43,220 nt of DNA from an uncultured Candidatus Saccharibacteria bacterium (lineage in GTDB: Bacteria; Patescibacteriota; Minisyncoccia; Phycocordibacterales; CAYZPE01), in the NCBI GenBank assembly GCA_964626625.1, contig CAZVFV010000001.1:1-43220 (forward strand), in the 5' to 3' direction. Shown here one piece after another: positions 6,894-43,167 of the stretch. Each line of letters begins with the position of its first letter. Within the stretch, counting starts at the first letter, position 1. The notes under the pieces were generated by a model. That model saw nothing but the letters and a program-made list of their open reading frames with translations. It was not told where the DNA came from and searched no databases. A program made the translations under genes and the position numbers.

Positions 6894-6998
6894 TTACCCT
6901 CCTACTTGGAAGTAATACTTCCGAGTAGTAAAGTTTTACCTCGTCCTATTCTCGTTGCACGCAGACGAGGTATTAGGCGAGGTAACGGGGAAAACTTT
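6894..6998. ncRNA. Candidate structured RNA motif, copy 1 (strand unresolved)
   Basis: The leader ttaccctcct and a variable hairpin precede a 69-nt core (6930-6998). The core is about 85% identical to 21031-21098 and has the nested stems aaagtttt/aaaacttt and acctcgtc/gacgaggt. Confidence 0.45.
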
Positions 6999-7033
6999 AT
7001 AGAATGTCCAACATTTGGTGTTGGACATTCTAT
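6999..7033 (-). terminator. 15-bp hairpin 3' of the helicase gene
   Basis: atagaatgtccaaca-tttgg-tgttggacattctat forms a perfect stem, 27 nt downstream of the helicase stop at 7060. Confidence 0.5.
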
Positions 7034-20922: not shown

Positions 20923-20967
20923 AATATAAAAATAGTTAGCAAGATTTATAATAAAGTATTAGAAACG

Positions 20968-21098
20968 TTACCCTCCTCGGTTCAGAAATGAAAAAGTTTT
21001 TCCATTTCCTCACCCTACGTCGGCAGTAATAAAGTTTTACCTCGTCCTATCCTCACTACAATAGACGAGGTGTCAGGCGAAACAACAGGGAAAACTTT
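20968..21098. ncRNA. Candidate structured RNA motif, copy 2, inside the rpoB upstream region
   Basis: ttaccctcct and a variable hairpin precede a 68-nt core (21031-21098) with the same nested stems as copy 1. If transcribed with rpoB it lies in the 5' leader. Confidence 0.45.
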
Positions 21099-21332
21099 GT
21101 TGGATATGTATCGGCTCCGCCGACTCTTTTTGTATGTGCTGATCGAACTCCGAAGCAGAGCTTCGGAGTATACTCCGCAATCGCAACAAACAAAAAATGT
21201 GCCTTATCTCCATAAGACATACAACAAAATTTTTTTCTTTATTTATACCGAGTTAGCAAGTGAAACGTAGCTACAAACACTAAAAATACCCTTTCTGGGC
21301 TACCTTAACTCAATCTTGCAATAGCGAAGATA

Positions 21333-21360
21333 AGTATACCTATAACTAAAAAGCTGTCAA
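21333..21360 (-). promoter_or_regulatory. Candidate rpoB operon promoter
   Basis: On the minus strand, TTGACA (21360-21355), a 16-nt spacer, then TATACT (21338-21333). This implies a roughly 400-nt leader before the rpoB ATG at 20922. Confidence 0.5.
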
Positions 21361-21389
21361 CCAAATAAAATAAGATATGTGGATAAGTA

Positions 21390-22076
21390 TTATTTCCCTT
21401 CTTTTCGCCATTCTTCTATTTTTTTGTGATCTCCCGACAAAAGCACTTTTGGTACTTTATATTTCTTGCCTTTATATTCTAAAATTTCTGGACGAGTGTA
21501 TACACGAGGAGATGCAATTCGAAGTTCTTCTAGTGAATTAATATCTCCTAATACACCCGAAACCTGCCGTGACATAACATCCATAATAAGCATGGCGGGG
21601 AGCTCTCCTCCTGTAAGCACAAAGGGTCCAACGGAAATATCTTCAGTTTTAAAAACTTTTTTTACGCGATCATCAATACCTTCATATCGTCCACACACAA
21701 TAATAATATCTGTATATTTTTTTACAGCTTTTTTAGCATAGTTATTTGAAAATTCCTTACCTGATGGAGAAAGCCAGATAATCTTAATAGTAGTCTTTTT
21801 AGTTTTTTCTTTGATATTGGAAATTGGTAATTGGAAATTACGAGCAGTATCAACAGCTTTCTCAATAGCTCTAATCGTCGGCTCTGCCCGTATCACCATT
21901 CCTGGACCACCCCCATACGGTTTATCATCTAGACGTTTCTTAGAATCAGCCTCATACTCTTTTGGGTCATAGAAAAAAACTCGAATCTTTTCATCTTCAA
22001 TCGCTCTCTTTAATATTGACTCTCCAAGATACGAAGTGAATGCATCTGGGAAAAGTGTGATTATATGAAAATTCAT
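21390..22076 (-). CDS. trmD: tRNA (guanine37-N1)-methyltransferase
   Basis: The start is moved to M18 of the track ORF (MNFHIITLFPDAF, the canonical TrmD N-terminus). The 17 upstream codons read through the inverted-repeat element. Confidence 0.9.
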   Translation of the reverse strand: MNFHIITLFPDAFTSYLGESILKRAIEDEKIRVFFYDPKEYEADSKKRLDDKPYGGGPGMVIRAEPTIRAIEKAVDTARNFQLPISNIKEKTKKTTIKIIWLSPSGKEFSNNYAKKAVKKYTDIIIVCGRYEGIDDRVKKVFKTEDISVGPFVLTGGELPAMLIMDVMSRQVSGVLGDINSLEELRIASPRVYTRPEILEYKGKKYKVPKVLLSGDHKKIEEWRKEGK

Positions 22077-22200
22077 CCCGTTAGAGATAGGTCGAGGTCT
22101 TTTATTTTGGAGCTTTCTGTTTAACATGTTTCTAATTATAATTTTACACCATTAAAATCATTGCTTCTACTACAGGTGCGACTGCGATCTCTAACGGGAT
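22075..22200 (-). mobile_element. Miniature ORF-less copy of the inverted-repeat element (MITE-like)
   Basis: The perfect 14-bp arms atcccgttagagat (22075-22088) and atctctaacgggat (22187-22200) are 98 nt apart. They are identical to the arms around the GIY-YIG ORF, and ATGA flanks both ends. Confidence 0.5.
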
Positions 22201-22209
22201 TCATTGTAT

Positions 22210-22244
22210 AGCTTTGAGCTATTAGCTTATAGCTTATAGGAAAA
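22210..22244 (+). repeat. Phased heptamer array: agctttg agctatt agcttat agcttat aggaaaa
   Basis: Five in-phase 7-nt units lie between the KH-gene terminator and the inverted-repeat element. Confidence 0.55.
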
Positions 22245-22256
22245 AAAATCAAAAAA

Positions 22257-22282
22257 TAAAACCACCCTTTAAGGTGGTTTTA
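22257..22282 (-). terminator. Intrinsic terminator after the KH-domain gene
   Basis: aaaaccacc-ctttaa-ggtggtttt, followed on the minus strand by a long U-tract. Confidence 0.75.
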
Positions 22283-22295
22283 TTTTTTGGTTTTT

Positions 22296-22610
22296 TTAGA
22301 TCTTTAAGTCTGCCATCGCTTCATCAACAGTTTTCGTTGCTGACTCAGGTCGCTTTCCTCCTTCTGGTTCATTGATCTTGAGATTAACGCGAGCGTTATT
22401 CTTCATACCAACCACTCGAAGAAGAGTTCTGATAGCTTTTGCGGTGTTACCTGATCGGCCAATAATTTTACCCATATCAGCTGGGTTAACATCAAGACTC
22501 ATTAAAACGCCCATCTCATCAACTGTTCGATTGACCTTTACGTCATCTGGATTATCAACGAGAGATCGTACTACAAAGTCCAAAAACTGCTTATCTTGTT
22601 CAGTAGACAT
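22296..22610 (-). CDS. KH-domain RNA-binding protein (YlqC/UPF0109 type)
   Basis: 104 aa with the GxxG KH motif in GKIIGRSGNTAKAIRTLL, in the conserved position between rpsP and trmD. Confidence 0.85.
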   Translation of the reverse strand: MSTEQDKQFLDFVVRSLVDNPDDVKVNRTVDEMGVLMSLDVNPADMGKIIGRSGNTAKAIRTLLRVVGMKNNARVNLKINEPEGGKRPESATKTVDEAMADLKI

Positions 22611-30437: not shown

Positions 30438-30476
30438 GAAGGCTATATTACTTTATTTTATAAAAAAAGGCAATCC

Positions 30477-30582
30477 AGCACTTATTTTTTGAAAAGATTT
30501 GCTAGCAAGTCTGATTTTTCGTGTGGAAATACACCTATCTTAATTATCTATTAAAAAGTTTTAATTTCAAAAAATAAGTGCT
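30477..30582. repeat. 18-bp perfect inverted repeat enclosing two small hairpins, upstream of rpmF
   Basis: agcacttattttttgaaa (30477-30494) pairs with tttcaaaaaataagtgct (30565-30582). The interior holds the hairpins agatttgc-ta-gcaagtct and gtgt-ggaaat-acac. Confidence 0.45.
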
Positions 30583-30584
30583 AG

Positions 30585-30622
30585 ATAAAAAAATAGCCCG
30601 GGCGCGCGTATGCGCCCGAGCT
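30585..30622 (-). terminator. Intrinsic terminator after the stand-alone NUDIX gene
   Basis: In the agcccgggcgc/gcgcccgagct stem, the single non-Watson-Crick position is G-U on the minus strand. It is followed on the minus strand by tattttttta. Confidence 0.7.
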
Positions 30623-31266: not shown

Positions 31267-31316
31267 AATCCCGTTAGAAGTCACAGTCTCTTACGAAACT
31301 TGCCTCTAACGGGATT
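31267..31316. repeat. Solo hairpin copy of the inverted-repeat family
   Basis: aatcccgttaga (31267-31278) pairs with tctaacgggatt (31305-31316) across a 26-nt loop. It has the same core sequence as the arms at 22075/22187 and 42886/43153. Confidence 0.55.
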
Positions 31317-37985: not shown

Positions 37986-37996
37986 TTTCTACATAC

Positions 37997-38030
37997 AAAA
38001 ACCGCGCACCTGTACAGGTGCGCGGTTTTT
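37997..38030. terminator. Bidirectional intrinsic terminator between thrS and gyrB
   Basis: accgcgcacctg-ta-caggtgcgcggt, flanked by aaaaa and ttttt. Confidence 0.8.
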
Positions 38031-38070
38031 GTATTAAAAGCATTACAAAATTATCTACTTTCAACAATTC

Positions 38071-40583: not shown

Positions 40584-40626
40584 CGTCGAAAATTTCTAAT
40601 AACATCGTTATTAGAAATTTTCGACG
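40584..40626 (-). terminator. Intrinsic terminator after pheT
   Basis: Perfect 20-bp stem cgtcgaaaatttctaataac-atc-gttattagaaattttcgacg, followed on the minus strand by tgattttttc. Confidence 0.8.
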
Positions 40627-40646: not shown

Positions 40647-42887
40647 CTACCTCACTGTCCACCCCTTCTTCTCAACCTCCCCTACTATTTGCTCCATTAC
40701 CTTGTTTATCTCTTCATCTGAAAGAGTTTTATCTTGAGACTGAAATACAAGTCTGAATGCATACGAAGTTTTTCCATCTTTTTCAAAGACATCAAATAAT
40801 GATATCTTCACAAGTAATTTCCCTGCATGTATTCGTATAAGCTTTTCTGTCTCCTTATCAGTTACCTCTTTTGGTACCCACAGAGCAATATCTCGTAGTA
40901 TAAACGGATAAACTGATATGTTTGTATATGTTTTCTTTTTTTGATTCAACTCCATACCATGCTCGCTAGCATCTCGAAGTTTTTCTATAATTTCTTCTAA
41001 ATTACATTCTATAGTCGAATCCTTTGTCATAAGATCAATACTCAATTCTTTTCTTAATATATTTAAAACATCCTGCAGAGTGTCTACCTCCCCCTCCTTC
41101 TTCCAACCCTTAGTATTTTTAACCGATATACATAAAGACACGTGTTCTTCACCATCTTTAGTAAACACTGTTCCAATTTCAAAAACTTTAATCTGGTTTA
41201 GACCCAAAAGTGGTGCATTGTATTCATTGAGTTTATGACTCTCTAAAACACCACGAGTTAAATTTTCCCGTACATATTTTTTATCTAAAGCGATAGGGTT
41301 TGCTATTTCCACCTTCCCTTCATTTCTAAATGAATATGTTTTTATTTCTGAGAATCCTTGTTTAGAAAGAAGATCTGTAATACGAAGTATGTAGTAGAAA
41401 AGTTTATTTACTTTTGGACTTACATTACTTTCTGGAAGTGCAACAGGAGCGACGTTATCGTATCCATGAATACGCCCAACTTCTTCGATAATGTTTTCTT
41501 TTAGATTTAGGTCGAGACGTCTGTATGGTGGAATTACCTTAAGCACATCTTTCTCGATACATACCTCACACTCAAGTGCTGTAAGAATCTTTTGTGCAGA
41601 AGTTAAAGAAATATGTATTCCAAGAACCCTTTTTATATCTTCTTGTCTAAGAGATATTTCCTTTTTTATGTGTGGCGATGGATATGTATCGCTCAAACCT
41701 TCATCTTTAGCTCCTGCAAGCTCCTCTAAAAGAGAAACTGCTCTCATAAGCCCTTCATGAACAAGCTCTGGAGATAATTCCTTTTCGAAACGAACACTTG
41801 ATTCAGTTCGAAGTTTTAAAGCCTGTGAAGTAAGTCTAGTTTGTACAGGATCGAAATTTGCAGACTCGAGCAGTATATCTGTTGTTTTCTCTGTAATAGA
41901 ACTTGCTTTACCACCTTTTATTCCGCCAATACCTAGAACCACATTAGTTTGCTTGTCTGTAATAAGAAGTGCAGAAGAAGGTAATTTATACTCAACATCA
42001 TCAAGGCCTATAAATTGCTCTCCTTCTGTGGCACCTCTTACATGCACATGACGCACACCTTCTTTTTCAAAAATATGAGAAAGGTCAAAAGCATGCAGTG
42101 GCTGTCCCATGTCCTGCATAACAAAATTTGTTATATCAACAACATTATTTATTGGTTTTTGACCAATTGATAGCAATCTCTCTTTAAGCCATTTTGGACT
42201 TTGACCAACCTTAACATTACGTAGAATTACAGCGCTGTATCGTGGAACAAGTTTTGGATTTTCAATTGATATTTGGAGTGTAGAACTCTTTTGCAGTTCT
42301 TTAGCTTGAACTTTTTTATTTAAAGGAATATCTAATATGGCACCGACTTCTCGAGCAATACCCTCATGAGAAAGACAGTCATGTGCTCTGTCTGGTAAAA
42401 CTTTAATATCAAAAATAGAATCTGTTTCTATATGTAAAAATTCCTTAAGTGGAGTTCCGACTTTAACTTCTTTTTCTATCACCCAAATCCCTTCGGCTTC
42501 TTTAGTAAAACCAAGCTCTTTTTCGGAACAAATCATTCCATTTGATTCAACACCTCGAATCTTTGAAACTTTAATCTCAAAATTACCTGGCAAAACTGCA
42601 CCCGGAAGCGCTACCGCAACAGTTTGTCCCTCTGCAACATTTACCGCTCCACAGACAATCTCTCGTCCCCCATCGCCAACATCCACTGTACAAATATGTA
42701 AACGATCAGCATTTGGATGTTTTTCTTTTTTGAGAACTTTACCAATAACAACATTATTAAAATGCCCACCCACTTCTTCGAGGCTCTCAATTTCAAATGC
42801 ATGAAAAGTAATCTTCTCTGCAATTAAAGCCGGAGAAGGCAATTTACTTTCGAAATAATCTTGAAGCCACTTATAGGAAATTTTCAT
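40647..42887 (-). CDS. pheT: Phenylalanine--tRNA ligase beta subunit
   Basis: 746 aa with MKISYKWLQDY, a tRNA-binding OB domain (HPNADRL), and B3/4, B5 and FDX-ACB-like C-terminal regions. Confidence 0.95.
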   Translation of the reverse strand: MKISYKWLQDYFESKLPSPALIAEKITFHAFEIESLEEVGGHFNNVVIGKVLKKEKHPNADRLHICTVDVGDGGREIVCGAVNVAEGQTVAVALPGAVLPGNFEIKVSKIRGVESNGMICSEKELGFTKEAEGIWVIEKEVKVGTPLKEFLHIETDSIFDIKVLPDRAHDCLSHEGIAREVGAILDIPLNKKVQAKELQKSSTLQISIENPKLVPRYSAVILRNVKVGQSPKWLKERLLSIGQKPINNVVDITNFVMQDMGQPLHAFDLSHIFEKEGVRHVHVRGATEGEQFIGLDDVEYKLPSSALLITDKQTNVVLGIGGIKGGKASSITEKTTDILLESANFDPVQTRLTSQALKLRTESSVRFEKELSPELVHEGLMRAVSLLEELAGAKDEGLSDTYPSPHIKKEISLRQEDIKRVLGIHISLTSAQKILTALECEVCIEKDVLKVIPPYRRLDLNLKENIIEEVGRIHGYDNVAPVALPESNVSPKVNKLFYYILRITDLLSKQGFSEIKTYSFRNEGKVEIANPIALDKKYVRENLTRGVLESHKLNEYNAPLLGLNQIKVFEIGTVFTKDGEEHVSLCISVKNTKGWKKEGEVDTLQDVLNILRKELSIDLMTKDSTIECNLEEIIEKLRDASEHGMELNQKKKTYTNISVYPFILRDIALWVPKEVTDKETEKLIRIHAGKLLVKISLFDVFEKDGKTSYAFRLVFQSQDKTLSDEEINKVMEQIVGEVEKKGWTVR

Positions 42888-43144
42888 CCCGTTAGAGATA
42901 GGAAACGCTTAATTCTGTTCTTAATAAAACGTTTTCCCATACCAGATTTTAAATATAATTCTCTCGACCGAGCATCGCCTTCATTAAGACATGCTTCATA
43001 GTAAATAAGTGTAAACGGTCCACGCTCTTTTGTATATGGAGACTTTCCATTATTATGTTGCCACAAGCGTTTCCGTAAGTTACTTGAGTATCCAGTATAG
43101 AATCCACTCGTCTTTTTACTTTTGATTATGTATGTGTAATGCAT
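42884..43144 (-). CDS. GIY-YIG nuclease superfamily protein (single-domain, 86 aa)
   Basis: YIIKSKKTSGFYTGYSSNLRKRLWQHN matches the GIY...YxG...R...H/N core. Its TGA stop overlaps the pheT ATG (ATGA). Confidence 0.85.
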   Translation of the reverse strand: MHYTYIIKSKKTSGFYTGYSSNLRKRLWQHNNGKSPYTKERGPFTLIYYEACLNEGDARSRELYLKSGMGKRFIKNRIKRFLSLTG

Positions 43145-43167
43145 AACTAAGGATCTCTAACGGGATC
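42884..43167 (-). mobile_element. GIY-YIG ORF cassette bounded by 14-bp perfect inverted repeats, inserted at the pheS-pheT junction
   Basis: The arms are atcccgttagagat (42886-42899) and atctctaacgggat (43153-43166). ATGA lies directly outside both ends on the coding (minus) strand. The ORF fills the space between the arms. Confidence 0.6.

Follow-up and report, generated by a model that had tools for sequence, protein, structure and literature searches.

A gene-less hairpin element at the start codon of trmD in a Candidatus Saccharibacteria bacterium: a probable miniature member of a mobile-element family carrying a GIY-YIG nuclease

Miniature inverted-repeat transposable elements (MITEs) have autonomous partners with terminal inverted repeats, and the Correia elements of Neisseria and the ERIC/IRU sequences of enterobacteria are bacterial examples. 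The RAYT enzyme of the REP/REPIN systems belongs to the HUH (Y1) type, and the REPINs are found mostly after genes, are inherited vertically and are devoid of target duplications. Free-standing GIY-YIG homing genes, such as the Seg genes of phage T4 and I-TevI, encode a separate DNA-binding domain and have long, specific targets. Homing endonucleases spread by recombination into the cognate allele, and we know of no inverted repeats, target duplications or gene-less derivatives among them. The mycobacteriophage elements MPME1 and MPME2 are about 440 bp long, contain short inverted repeats and one small open reading frame (ORF) for a protein of unknown fold, and reside in phage hosts; to our knowledge, start-codon targeting has not been reported for them. 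The proteins of the UPF0213 (YhbQ/BH0048) and Slx1 groups are, as far as we know, neither mobile nor flanked by inverted repeats. In our study, we analyzed a stretch of 43,220 nucleotides from an uncultured Candidatus Saccharibacteria bacterium (assembly GCA_964626625.1, contig CAZVFV010000001.1, positions 1 to 43,220 of the forward strand; hereafter the window), in which a gene-less hairpin element with a core of 122 nt was found to sit exactly at the start codon of trmD, rebuilding that codon.

The trmD block is best read as MITE-like and non-autonomous, belonging to a family of very small mobile elements with Y-CCCGTTAGA...TCTAACGGG-R termini, a reading to which we give a probability of roughly 0.8. 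The full form of this family is about 275-280 nt long and contains one gene, which encodes an 86-aa UPF0213/Slx1-like GIY-YIG nuclease; the short form (the mini) is a gene-less, double-stemmed hairpin. Both forms are present at RTGAA, usually a start codon followed by the next two bases, are oriented with the gene and have a duplication of 3-4 nt (TGAA/TGA). The terminal R of the element and the duplicated TG rebuild the start codon, and the host gene therefore stays intact. The examined 43 kb of this organism contained one mini, one micro copy and one full copy. Element coordinates are given as window positions, and both the trmD element and the full-length element lie on the minus strand. 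The layout on that strand was ...CAATGAAT-CCCGTTAGAGAT-(98 nt)-ATCTCTAACGGG-ATGAATTTTCAT..., with the following parts.

22077-22198, minus strand: core of the mini, 122 nt, CCCGTTAGAGAT ... ATCTCTAACGGG; without counterpart at the orthologous site of the relatives L008 and L012, termini equal to the family consensus.
22187-22200, minus strand: 5' arm in the direction of transcription, ATCCCGTTAGAGAT (arm search).
22075-22088, minus strand: 3' arm, ATCTCTAACGGGAT, the final two bases of which are the A and T of the trmD ATG (arm search).
22199-22204, minus strand: upstream ATGAAT copy, the old trmD start codon, now the head of a 22-codon upstream ORF (uORF); single copy in relatives.
22071-22076, minus strand: downstream ATGAAT copy, codons 1-2 of trmD (M N), placed by the empty-site alignment and the starts of homologues.
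22178-22186, minus strand: 5' half of the inner stem, CGCAGTCGC, with one substitution against the consensus CGCGRWCGC (family alignment).
22089-22099, minus strand: 3' half of the inner stem with its bulge, GACCTCGACCT, with one substitution against the consensus GWYCGCGWYCT (family alignment, covariation).
22136-22204, minus strand: uORF, MNPVRDRSRTCSRSNDFNGVKL and a stop, from the old start codon through the 5' arm (ORF reading; MNPVR... equivalents in 86 minis).
21390-22076, minus strand: trmD, 228 aa, true start ATG at 22074-22076 (Pfam PF01746, E 1.9e-32; homologues and JGI call P0121).

The insertion was seen by comparison with empty sites. Contigs of relatives were located via TrmD homologues at 78-79% identity and formed two groups (L008-L011 and L012-L014), both of which keep the gene order rpsP, KH-domain gene, trmD, rpoB, with a terminator-like hairpin after the KH gene. 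In these relatives the upstream DNA continues directly into ...ATGAATTTTCAC... with one ATGAAT only, and the empty site reads ...ATGAATTTTCA... In the window, and likewise in L006, which is another, independent assembly of this organism, exactly 128 bases were added, namely the 122-nt core and a second ATGAAT; the element entered the ATGAAT of trmD in the window lineage. The first-pass annotation of this DNA had proposed such an alignment as a check, and the block was indeed absent, and ATGAAT single-copy, in both groups of relatives; its figure of 112 nt for the missing block was a miscount, the alignment giving 128 nt. The empty site of a window-type strain would read CAATGAATTTTCAT, and an excision product or circle junction would read ...CTAACGGG joined to CCCGTTAG... 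The GIY-YIG copy was also found to be an insertion. A separate search with PheT relatives (L226 and L227, 62% identity) gave an empty pheS-pheT junction, composed of the pheS stop, 3 nt and then ATGAAAATTTC, compared with which the window is longer by 282 bases, flanked by ATGA at either end. BLAST of the empty sites reconstructed from the fetched loci returned the trmD case alone. A further contig, L007 (JGI Ga0163146_10136756), was tried as a within-species empty site and rejected; its trmD is 99.9% identical to the window trmD and is joined to L008-like upstream sequence, with the switch to window-like sequence exactly at the ATG. This contig is probably an assembly chimera at shared sequence beside the repeat, though it could be a natural recombinant.

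The arm ATCCCGTTAGAGAT was found without mismatch at 22075-22088 (plus strand) and 22187-22200 (minus strand), and also at 42886-42899 and 43153-43166. When up to 2 mismatches were allowed, the window contained 7 matches against 0.32 expected, and none of 100 shuffles reached 7. The identical 14-bp arms described in the first-pass annotation, 22075-22088 and 22187-22200 around 98 nt (22089-22186), were recovered by this search, and the interior was free of any gene, as had been noted: it contained no ORF of 40 aa or more, only the 22-codon uORF and a 17-codon in-frame extension of trmD. The extension had been called spurious, and this was right. The TrmD homologues and the JGI gene call (P0121, 228 aa) begin with MNFHII, which rules out the upstream ATG at 22127 as the start of trmD. 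The right ends of the two elements share the 20-nt identity that had been seen, ttcatcccgttagagatagg on the plus strand (cctatctctaacgggatgaa on the minus strand), at 22072-22091 and 42883-42902. In both cases the right end supplies the downstream start as proposed, the 3' arm giving the A and T of the trmD ATG and of the pheT ATG, and ATGAAT does stand on both sides of the mini on the minus strand (22199-22204 and 22071-22076). The parts of the full-length element were as follows.

42888-43164, minus strand: full-length core of 277 nt in the gap that separates the pheS stop from the pheT start, its termini being those of the mini (empty junction in L226 and L227).
42884-43144, minus strand: ORF of the 86-aa GIY-YIG nuclease (Pfam PF01541, E 8.5e-16; 1688 homologues).
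40647-42887, minus strand: pheT, its start codon rebuilt by the right end of the full element (empty junction comparison).

The nuclease ORF ends in the codons S-L-T-G, which are the 3' arm, and on a TGA stop that overlaps the pheT ATG. The 1688 homologues (E <=1e-5) were mostly exactly 86 aa long with a conserved C-terminus ...RFLSLTG, and the miscalled N-terminal extensions of the nuclease ('MNPVRD') are translated 5' arm. By the names that homologues bear, the organism would be a member of the Parcubacteria/Paceibacterota, within the candidate phyla radiation. A one-genome-per-species scan contained at least 560 relatives, mostly from Patescibacteria; the others among the matches listed were metagenome-assembled genomes labelled Omnitrophota, Planctomycetota, Thermodesulfobacteriota, Syntrophales and Clostridia, with 61-80% identity. 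GIY-YIG genes have been listed among transfers from Patescibacteria to other bacteria (PMC12455944). The dN/dS of the nuclease gene was about 0.14, with third codon positions extra conserved in the arm overlap, and the gene is under purifying selection. The catalytic Tyr, Arg and Glu positions were invariant in the alignment, and the protein is composed of the catalytic domain and one basic helix. A profile search gave UPF0213 BH0048 (1zg2, E 2.5e-11) as the closest solved relative, followed by 1ywl (E 5e-5), and Foldseek with the predicted model (pLDDT 89.5) found 1zg2 first, followed by Slx1 structures with TM(query) of 0.61-0.65. The predicted fold is nearer to Slx1/UPF0213, and I-TevI is much more distant. 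No NCBIfam model matched the 86-aa protein, PHROGs contained no match to the nuclease, and the viral contigs contained one distant relative of it (41% identity) and no close one. In the relative L229 (777-1148), the pheS-pheT gap holds a PF05635 gene (23S rRNA-intervening sequence protein) in the place of the GIY-YIG element, and this junction seems prone to receiving small selfish genes. Upstream of pheS in the same organism, past the end of the window, a Cas1 gene was found beside an IS605 OrfB/TnpB-type helix-turn-helix gene (L216, 1-1106; L218, 1-1178).

About 70 full-copy loci were retrieved by similarity of the GIY-YIG protein alone, and junction statistics were taken from 68 oriented full copies of several phyla. 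In nearly all loci, exact CCCGTTAGAG and CTCTAACGGG bracket the nuclease gene at a distance of 271-285 nt. In 63 of the 68 copies, the bases that precede CCCG and follow CGGG were complementary, as T with A or as C with G. The right flank opened with a start codon in 48/68, and an ORF of at least 60 codons began there in 37/68. Direct repeats of 4 nt, mostly TGAA, were present in 28/68 copies, followed by 3-nt repeats (TGA) in another 15/68. The stop of the nuclease gene was the flanking TGA in 52/68, which places it in the duplicated target, outside the element, and the ATGA overlap with the next gene arises because the nuclease ORF ends on this duplicated TGA. The first-pass annotation had suggested stop/start overlaps as the target; neither of the two empty sites (trmD and pheS-pheT) contains such an overlap, and the target is rather the start-codon context RTGAA. 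A 6-nt duplication of ATGAAT was also considered and rejected, as any of the four bases can stand sixth in the right flank and the bases flanking CCCG and CGGG are complementary instead. From the aligned junctions, all classes of copies are best described by an element Y-CCCGTTAGA...TCTAACGGG-R with 13-bp termini, the target (R)TGAA and a duplication of 4 nt, in some cases of 3 nt. Among the copies with C...G termini, several contained ATGAAC at the left and GTGAAT at the right, i.e., an ATG start was turned into a GTG start, and this conversion is expected under the Y...R junction model.

The right-end junction recreates the target, which accounts for tandem arrays and for old remnants upstream of copies. 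The tandem arrays consisted of a full copy then a mini, or of a mini then a mini (L069, 5262-5661; L070; L127, 6132-6366), and older 3'-arm remnants (..ACGGGATGAAT) were found just upstream of many copies, for example in the left flanks of L022 and L026. The rebuilt junction is itself a preferred target.

Gene-less short pairs numbered 40 in the full-copy loci; 29 of them had a 4-nt repeat and 23 were found exactly at the start of an ORF of at least 60 codons. A metagenome scan with the mini-typical 5' end CCCGTTAGARRYCGCRRWCGC gave at least 120 loci, with 92 complete copies among the matches listed, to which the following counts refer. A start codon adjoined 80 of the 92 minis and an ORF of at least 60 codons followed 64; the 4-nt repeat, usually TGAA, was present at 62, and only about one mini was in the opposite orientation to the gene. 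The genes directly downstream of sampled mini and full copies were map (methionine aminopeptidase), dnaX, rplI (L9), ssb, ruvX, rnhA (RNase H) and others, an unrelated set of housekeeping genes. The first-pass annotation had compared the two elements of the window to an autonomous and non-autonomous pair. At the level of the family this stands, as the same termini bracket a gene in about 70 loci and are found in more than 130 gene-less copies; the mini is not a shrunken copy of its neighbour, and it is an inference that the nuclease mobilises it.

The minis contained an outer 12-bp stem, followed by an inner stem CGCGRWC / GWYCGCG and a variable, AT-rich interior of about 70 nt; the 3' WYCT bulge permits a second pairing register. 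In both registers 97.7-98.4% of cells were paired, against 34-44% in slid controls, and 56-58 cells were compensatory compared with about 20 in shuffles, a level that none of 500 shuffles reached. Only the first 9 nt of each arm were invariant, and positions 10-12 and the inner stem varied freely while pairing was held. What is recognised thus seems to be a short sequence at the terminus, displayed on a stem, and not a long duplex repeat.

The strong covariation and the fixed size would also suit a hairpin repeat domesticated by the host in the manner of REP/REPIN-RAYT, which would be kept for tuning mRNA stability or translation at gene starts, with the nuclease as a host-maintained partner that disperses or maintains the hairpins, not as a selfish transposase. 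The strict orientation with the gene, the stops in two frames that the 3' arm places next to the rebuilt start and the single nuclease locus in 13 contigs of this organism agree with domestication, and so does the enrichment of gene starts beyond the RTGAA background. In the same contigs, RTGAA was counted 155 times at called gene starts versus 583 times in other non-coding sequence; random insertion with loss of intragenic copies would place about 21% of copies at start sites versus 70-87% observed, an excess of about 3-4 times, all by crude gene calls. From these counts, either the mechanism or selection would favour gene starts. Against domestication, the presence of the element at a given gene is not conserved among relatives, the target genes are unrelated, and tandem and decayed copies accumulate at the same sites. 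The nuclease is, moreover, 61-80% identical across phyla, which argues for horizontal spread. We consider domestication unlikely.

A second alternative is that a full GIY-YIG element at trmD lost its gene by internal deletion, so that the mini is a remnant in place and never moved. In favour of this, the mini has the same termini as the neighbouring full copy and agrees with it without mismatch over 20 nt of the right end, and the 3' inner region of minis (GCG..CCT) resembles the codons K-R-F-L that end the nuclease gene. The latter likeness suggests that the 3' end of a full copy gave rise to the minis, the stretch being too short for proof. The minis have, against this, a discrete architecture: the inner-stem consensus CGCGRWCGC / GWYCGCGWYCT was present in minis (typically about 113-119 nt) and absent from the full element, and 79 of the 92 complete copies among the matches listed measured 110-119 nt. 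They were found at many unrelated genes, and near-identical minis at two loci of one contig (L085, 11767 and 13937), together with the tandem pair of L127, show that minis multiply as minis. When the interior of the mini was aligned with the GIY-YIG gene, no convincing similarity was found beyond the ends. A deletion remnant at trmD is therefore very unlikely. The two inner-stem substitutions of the window mini, one on each side, do not compensate each other, and by its sequence the trmD copy is a slightly decayed member of the mini subfamily and not a shortened copy of the neighbouring GIY-YIG element.

The trmD leader is now 128 nt longer, with the AUG at the base of the 14-bp stem. The mRNA fold suggested as a check in the first-pass annotation had the arms paired and the AUG inside the stem (predicted -32.6 kcal/mol, z = -3.8). 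The old AUG heads the 22-codon uORF (MNPVRD...), which reads through the 5' arm. Across 86 minis, no uORF was found to read into the gene, and in 24 of them the uORF stopped either at the TGA that overlaps the rebuilt start or at a TAA 4 nt ahead of it; the TAA and TGA stops, in two frames, are built into the 3' arm beside the rebuilt start. Ribosomes that start at the old AUG may therefore open the stem, so that initiation or re-initiation at the rebuilt AUG becomes possible. A stable fold that hides the AUG, directly after a terminator-like hairpin, could also be a cis-regulatory leader RNA of trmD (an attenuator or translational operator). This is highly improbable, as two groups of relatives have the orthologous leader without the element, the same element is present before dozens of unrelated genes, and no Rfam family matched. 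With Rfam 15, no match reached the gathering score in the whole window and none was found for the element at E <=1 over 20930-22330; sub-threshold matches were only to the neighbouring terminator hairpin. No promoter was found within or upstream of the element by a sigma-70 consensus scan. A chance inverted repeat or an assembly artefact, for which only the shortness of the arms could speak, has a negligible probability in view of the 7 arm matches against 0.32 expected, the identical block in the independent assembly L006 and the hundreds of family members.

For the mobile family as we read it, a mechanism can be proposed. The nuclease would recognise the invariant 9-nt termini on a stem or cruciform and would cut there and/or at RTGAA; Slx1 is a structure-specific nuclease that cuts branched and stem-loop DNA, and a hairpin or cruciform would be a fitting substrate for an Slx1-like enzyme. 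Host repair would complete the insertion, with the ATGAA on both sides of every donor copy as a possible source of priming microhomology. No GIY-YIG enzyme is known to join DNA, which makes it more plausible that host repair finishes the insertion than that the enzyme performs true strand transfer. Microhomology-primed copying at a cut RTGAA might, as a speculation, produce the variable duplication length. Minis would be moved in trans by the nuclease, the putative mobilising enzyme.

Several observations weigh against the MITE-like reading. The duplication is 3 or 4 nt long, and about one third of the full copies are without a recognisable duplication. At arm positions 10-12, a mini often departs from the full copy that shares its contig, and the inner stem of minis is missing in full copies, so that the link between full copies and minis rests on shared 9-13-nt termini, junction structure and co-occurrence on the same contig. 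We know of no transposition chemistry for GIY-YIG enzymes, and the 86-aa nuclease lacks a separate DNA-binding domain. Among 13 contigs, the exact GIY-YIG protein of this organism was found at pheS-pheT only, which gives no sign of recent spread of the full copy here. The window copy, with its two unpaired inner-stem substitutions, may be immobile, and the one candidate for an empty site from within the species, L007, resembles an assembly chimera.

A wider proposal goes further than the mobile family itself. The elements might be a new class of prokaryotic transposable elements, the sole protein of which, an 86-residue Slx1/UPF0213-like nuclease, would act on hairpin or cruciform termini and home harmlessly to RTGAA starts (by a borrowed start, an ORF that ends on the duplicated TGA and a rebuilt start codon), with abundant 113-119-nt hairpin MITEs across Patescibacteria and several other phyla. 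We hold this proposal tentatively, at somewhat less than even odds. Literature on GIY-YIG proteins, UPF0213/YhbQ and MITEs in the candidate phyla radiation (CPR) gave no description of such elements; its coverage was incomplete, and this is no proof of novelty.

Two further features of the window belong to the surroundings of the element or to its family.

22242-22297, minus strand: terminator-like hairpin after the KH-domain gene, upstream of the element, host sequence (position conserved in relatives).
31268-31315 (44-nt copy at 31270-31313), no strand assigned: degenerate micro copy, 44-48 nt, arms CCCGTTAGAAGT / GCCTCTAACGGG with 2 mismatches per arm (arm search, fold).

The micro copy folds tightly as a hairpin (-29.9 kcal/mol, z = -8); a Nudix gene follows after about 55 nt, no start codon adjoins the copy and there is no duplication. 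Comparable micro copies of 43-66 nt were present at L045, L071, L080, L087 and L037. Directly upstream of the original trmD start, an AAGCT repeat block (22205-22240, CTATAAGCTATAAGCTAATAGCTCAAAGCTATACA on the minus strand) was conserved in L008 and L012; it may be a promoter or regulatory site, and no sigma-70 consensus was found there. A sequence of about 80 nt was present twice in the window, at 6924-7005 and 21025-21105, with 93% identity over 30 nt and 79% over 43 nt. Its second copy, in the interval from the trmD stop to the rpoB start, contains a nested hairpin with weak support (z -1 to -2.7) and no Rfam match; the repeat may be a small structured RNA or a leader motif. A different inverted repeat at 30473-30586, between an L32-like ORF and the Nudix gene, contained 22-nt arms that are 95% complementary and 70 nt apart, the only such pair in the window, and could be another MITE-like family or a bidirectional terminator. 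Perfect palindromes with 19-21-nt arms and 0-3 nt between them were found at 1263-1300, 37993-38034 and 40584-40626 and are probably terminators. No tRNA or tmRNA genes were found in the window.

The elements are a source of systematic errors in gene calls, as in the spurious N-terminal extension of trmD among host genes and the 'MNPVRD...' extensions of the nuclease, which is itself mislabelled in annotations as 'excinuclease ABC subunit C'. If the nuclease moves the elements, GIY-YIG would join the short list of enzyme classes for prokaryotic transposition, and the unit of about 280 bp would be among the smallest self-contained ones. Targeting and rebuilding of start codons would be a distinct way for a parasite to coexist with tiny, gene-dense CPR genomes. 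Hairpin leaders on essential genes offer a testable case of CPR translation with a sequestered start codon, and the family may serve as a marker of genes exchanged between CPR bacteria and other phyla of groundwater or sediment.

Compared with described systems, the elements contained several characters of MITEs. They are short and gene-less, with terminal inverted repeats, a short target duplication, many copies of uniform size, RNA hairpins, co-transcription with neighbouring genes and termini common to a gene-carrying form. In our material these characters were seen as inverted termini of 12-13 bp family-wide, a duplication with an empty site, a small gene-less core and uniform copies at unrelated loci. 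The partner of the minis here encodes a GIY-YIG nuclease, whereas the partners of MITEs encode DDE, HUH, serine or tyrosine transposases. Unlike the Correia and ERIC types, insertion is in one orientation at RTGAA starts with the start codon rebuilt; the duplication is TGAA versus TA in the MITE comparison, and no sequence similarity to Correia or ERIC was found. An integron attC cassette was considered and rejected, as the order of its core sites is reversed (GTTAGAG ... CTCTAAC versus RYYYAAC ... GTTRRRY) and no integrase is adjacent.

With GIY-YIG homing genes, the full form shares a selfish nuclease gene between operon genes, a patchy presence in relatives and the PF01541 domain; unlike in homing genes, only about 5 nt (RTGAA) are common to the many unrelated insertion sites, and the DNA-binding domain is lacking. 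The sequence of the nuclease (by its profile match to 1zg2) and its predicted fold are those of the UPF0213/Slx1 proteins. MPME1 and MPME2 are likewise tiny, with short inverted repeats and a single small ORF, but the protein here is different and has no close relative in viral contigs. REP/REPIN-RAYT systems also contain dispersed hairpins of about 100 nt with covarying stems and a small, repeat-flanked nuclease gene, often in single copy, whereas the sole associated protein here is a GIY-YIG nuclease, no HUH (Y1) enzyme being present, and this nuclease is common to several phyla. By analogy, the behaviour of the elements would be closest to a MITE with its autonomous partner, the enzyme to GIY-YIG homing genes, and the logic of a hairpin and a single nuclease to REPIN/RAYT. 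In this comparison, the trmD element is a MITE-type element with a putative autonomous partner, and would use an unprecedented enzyme.

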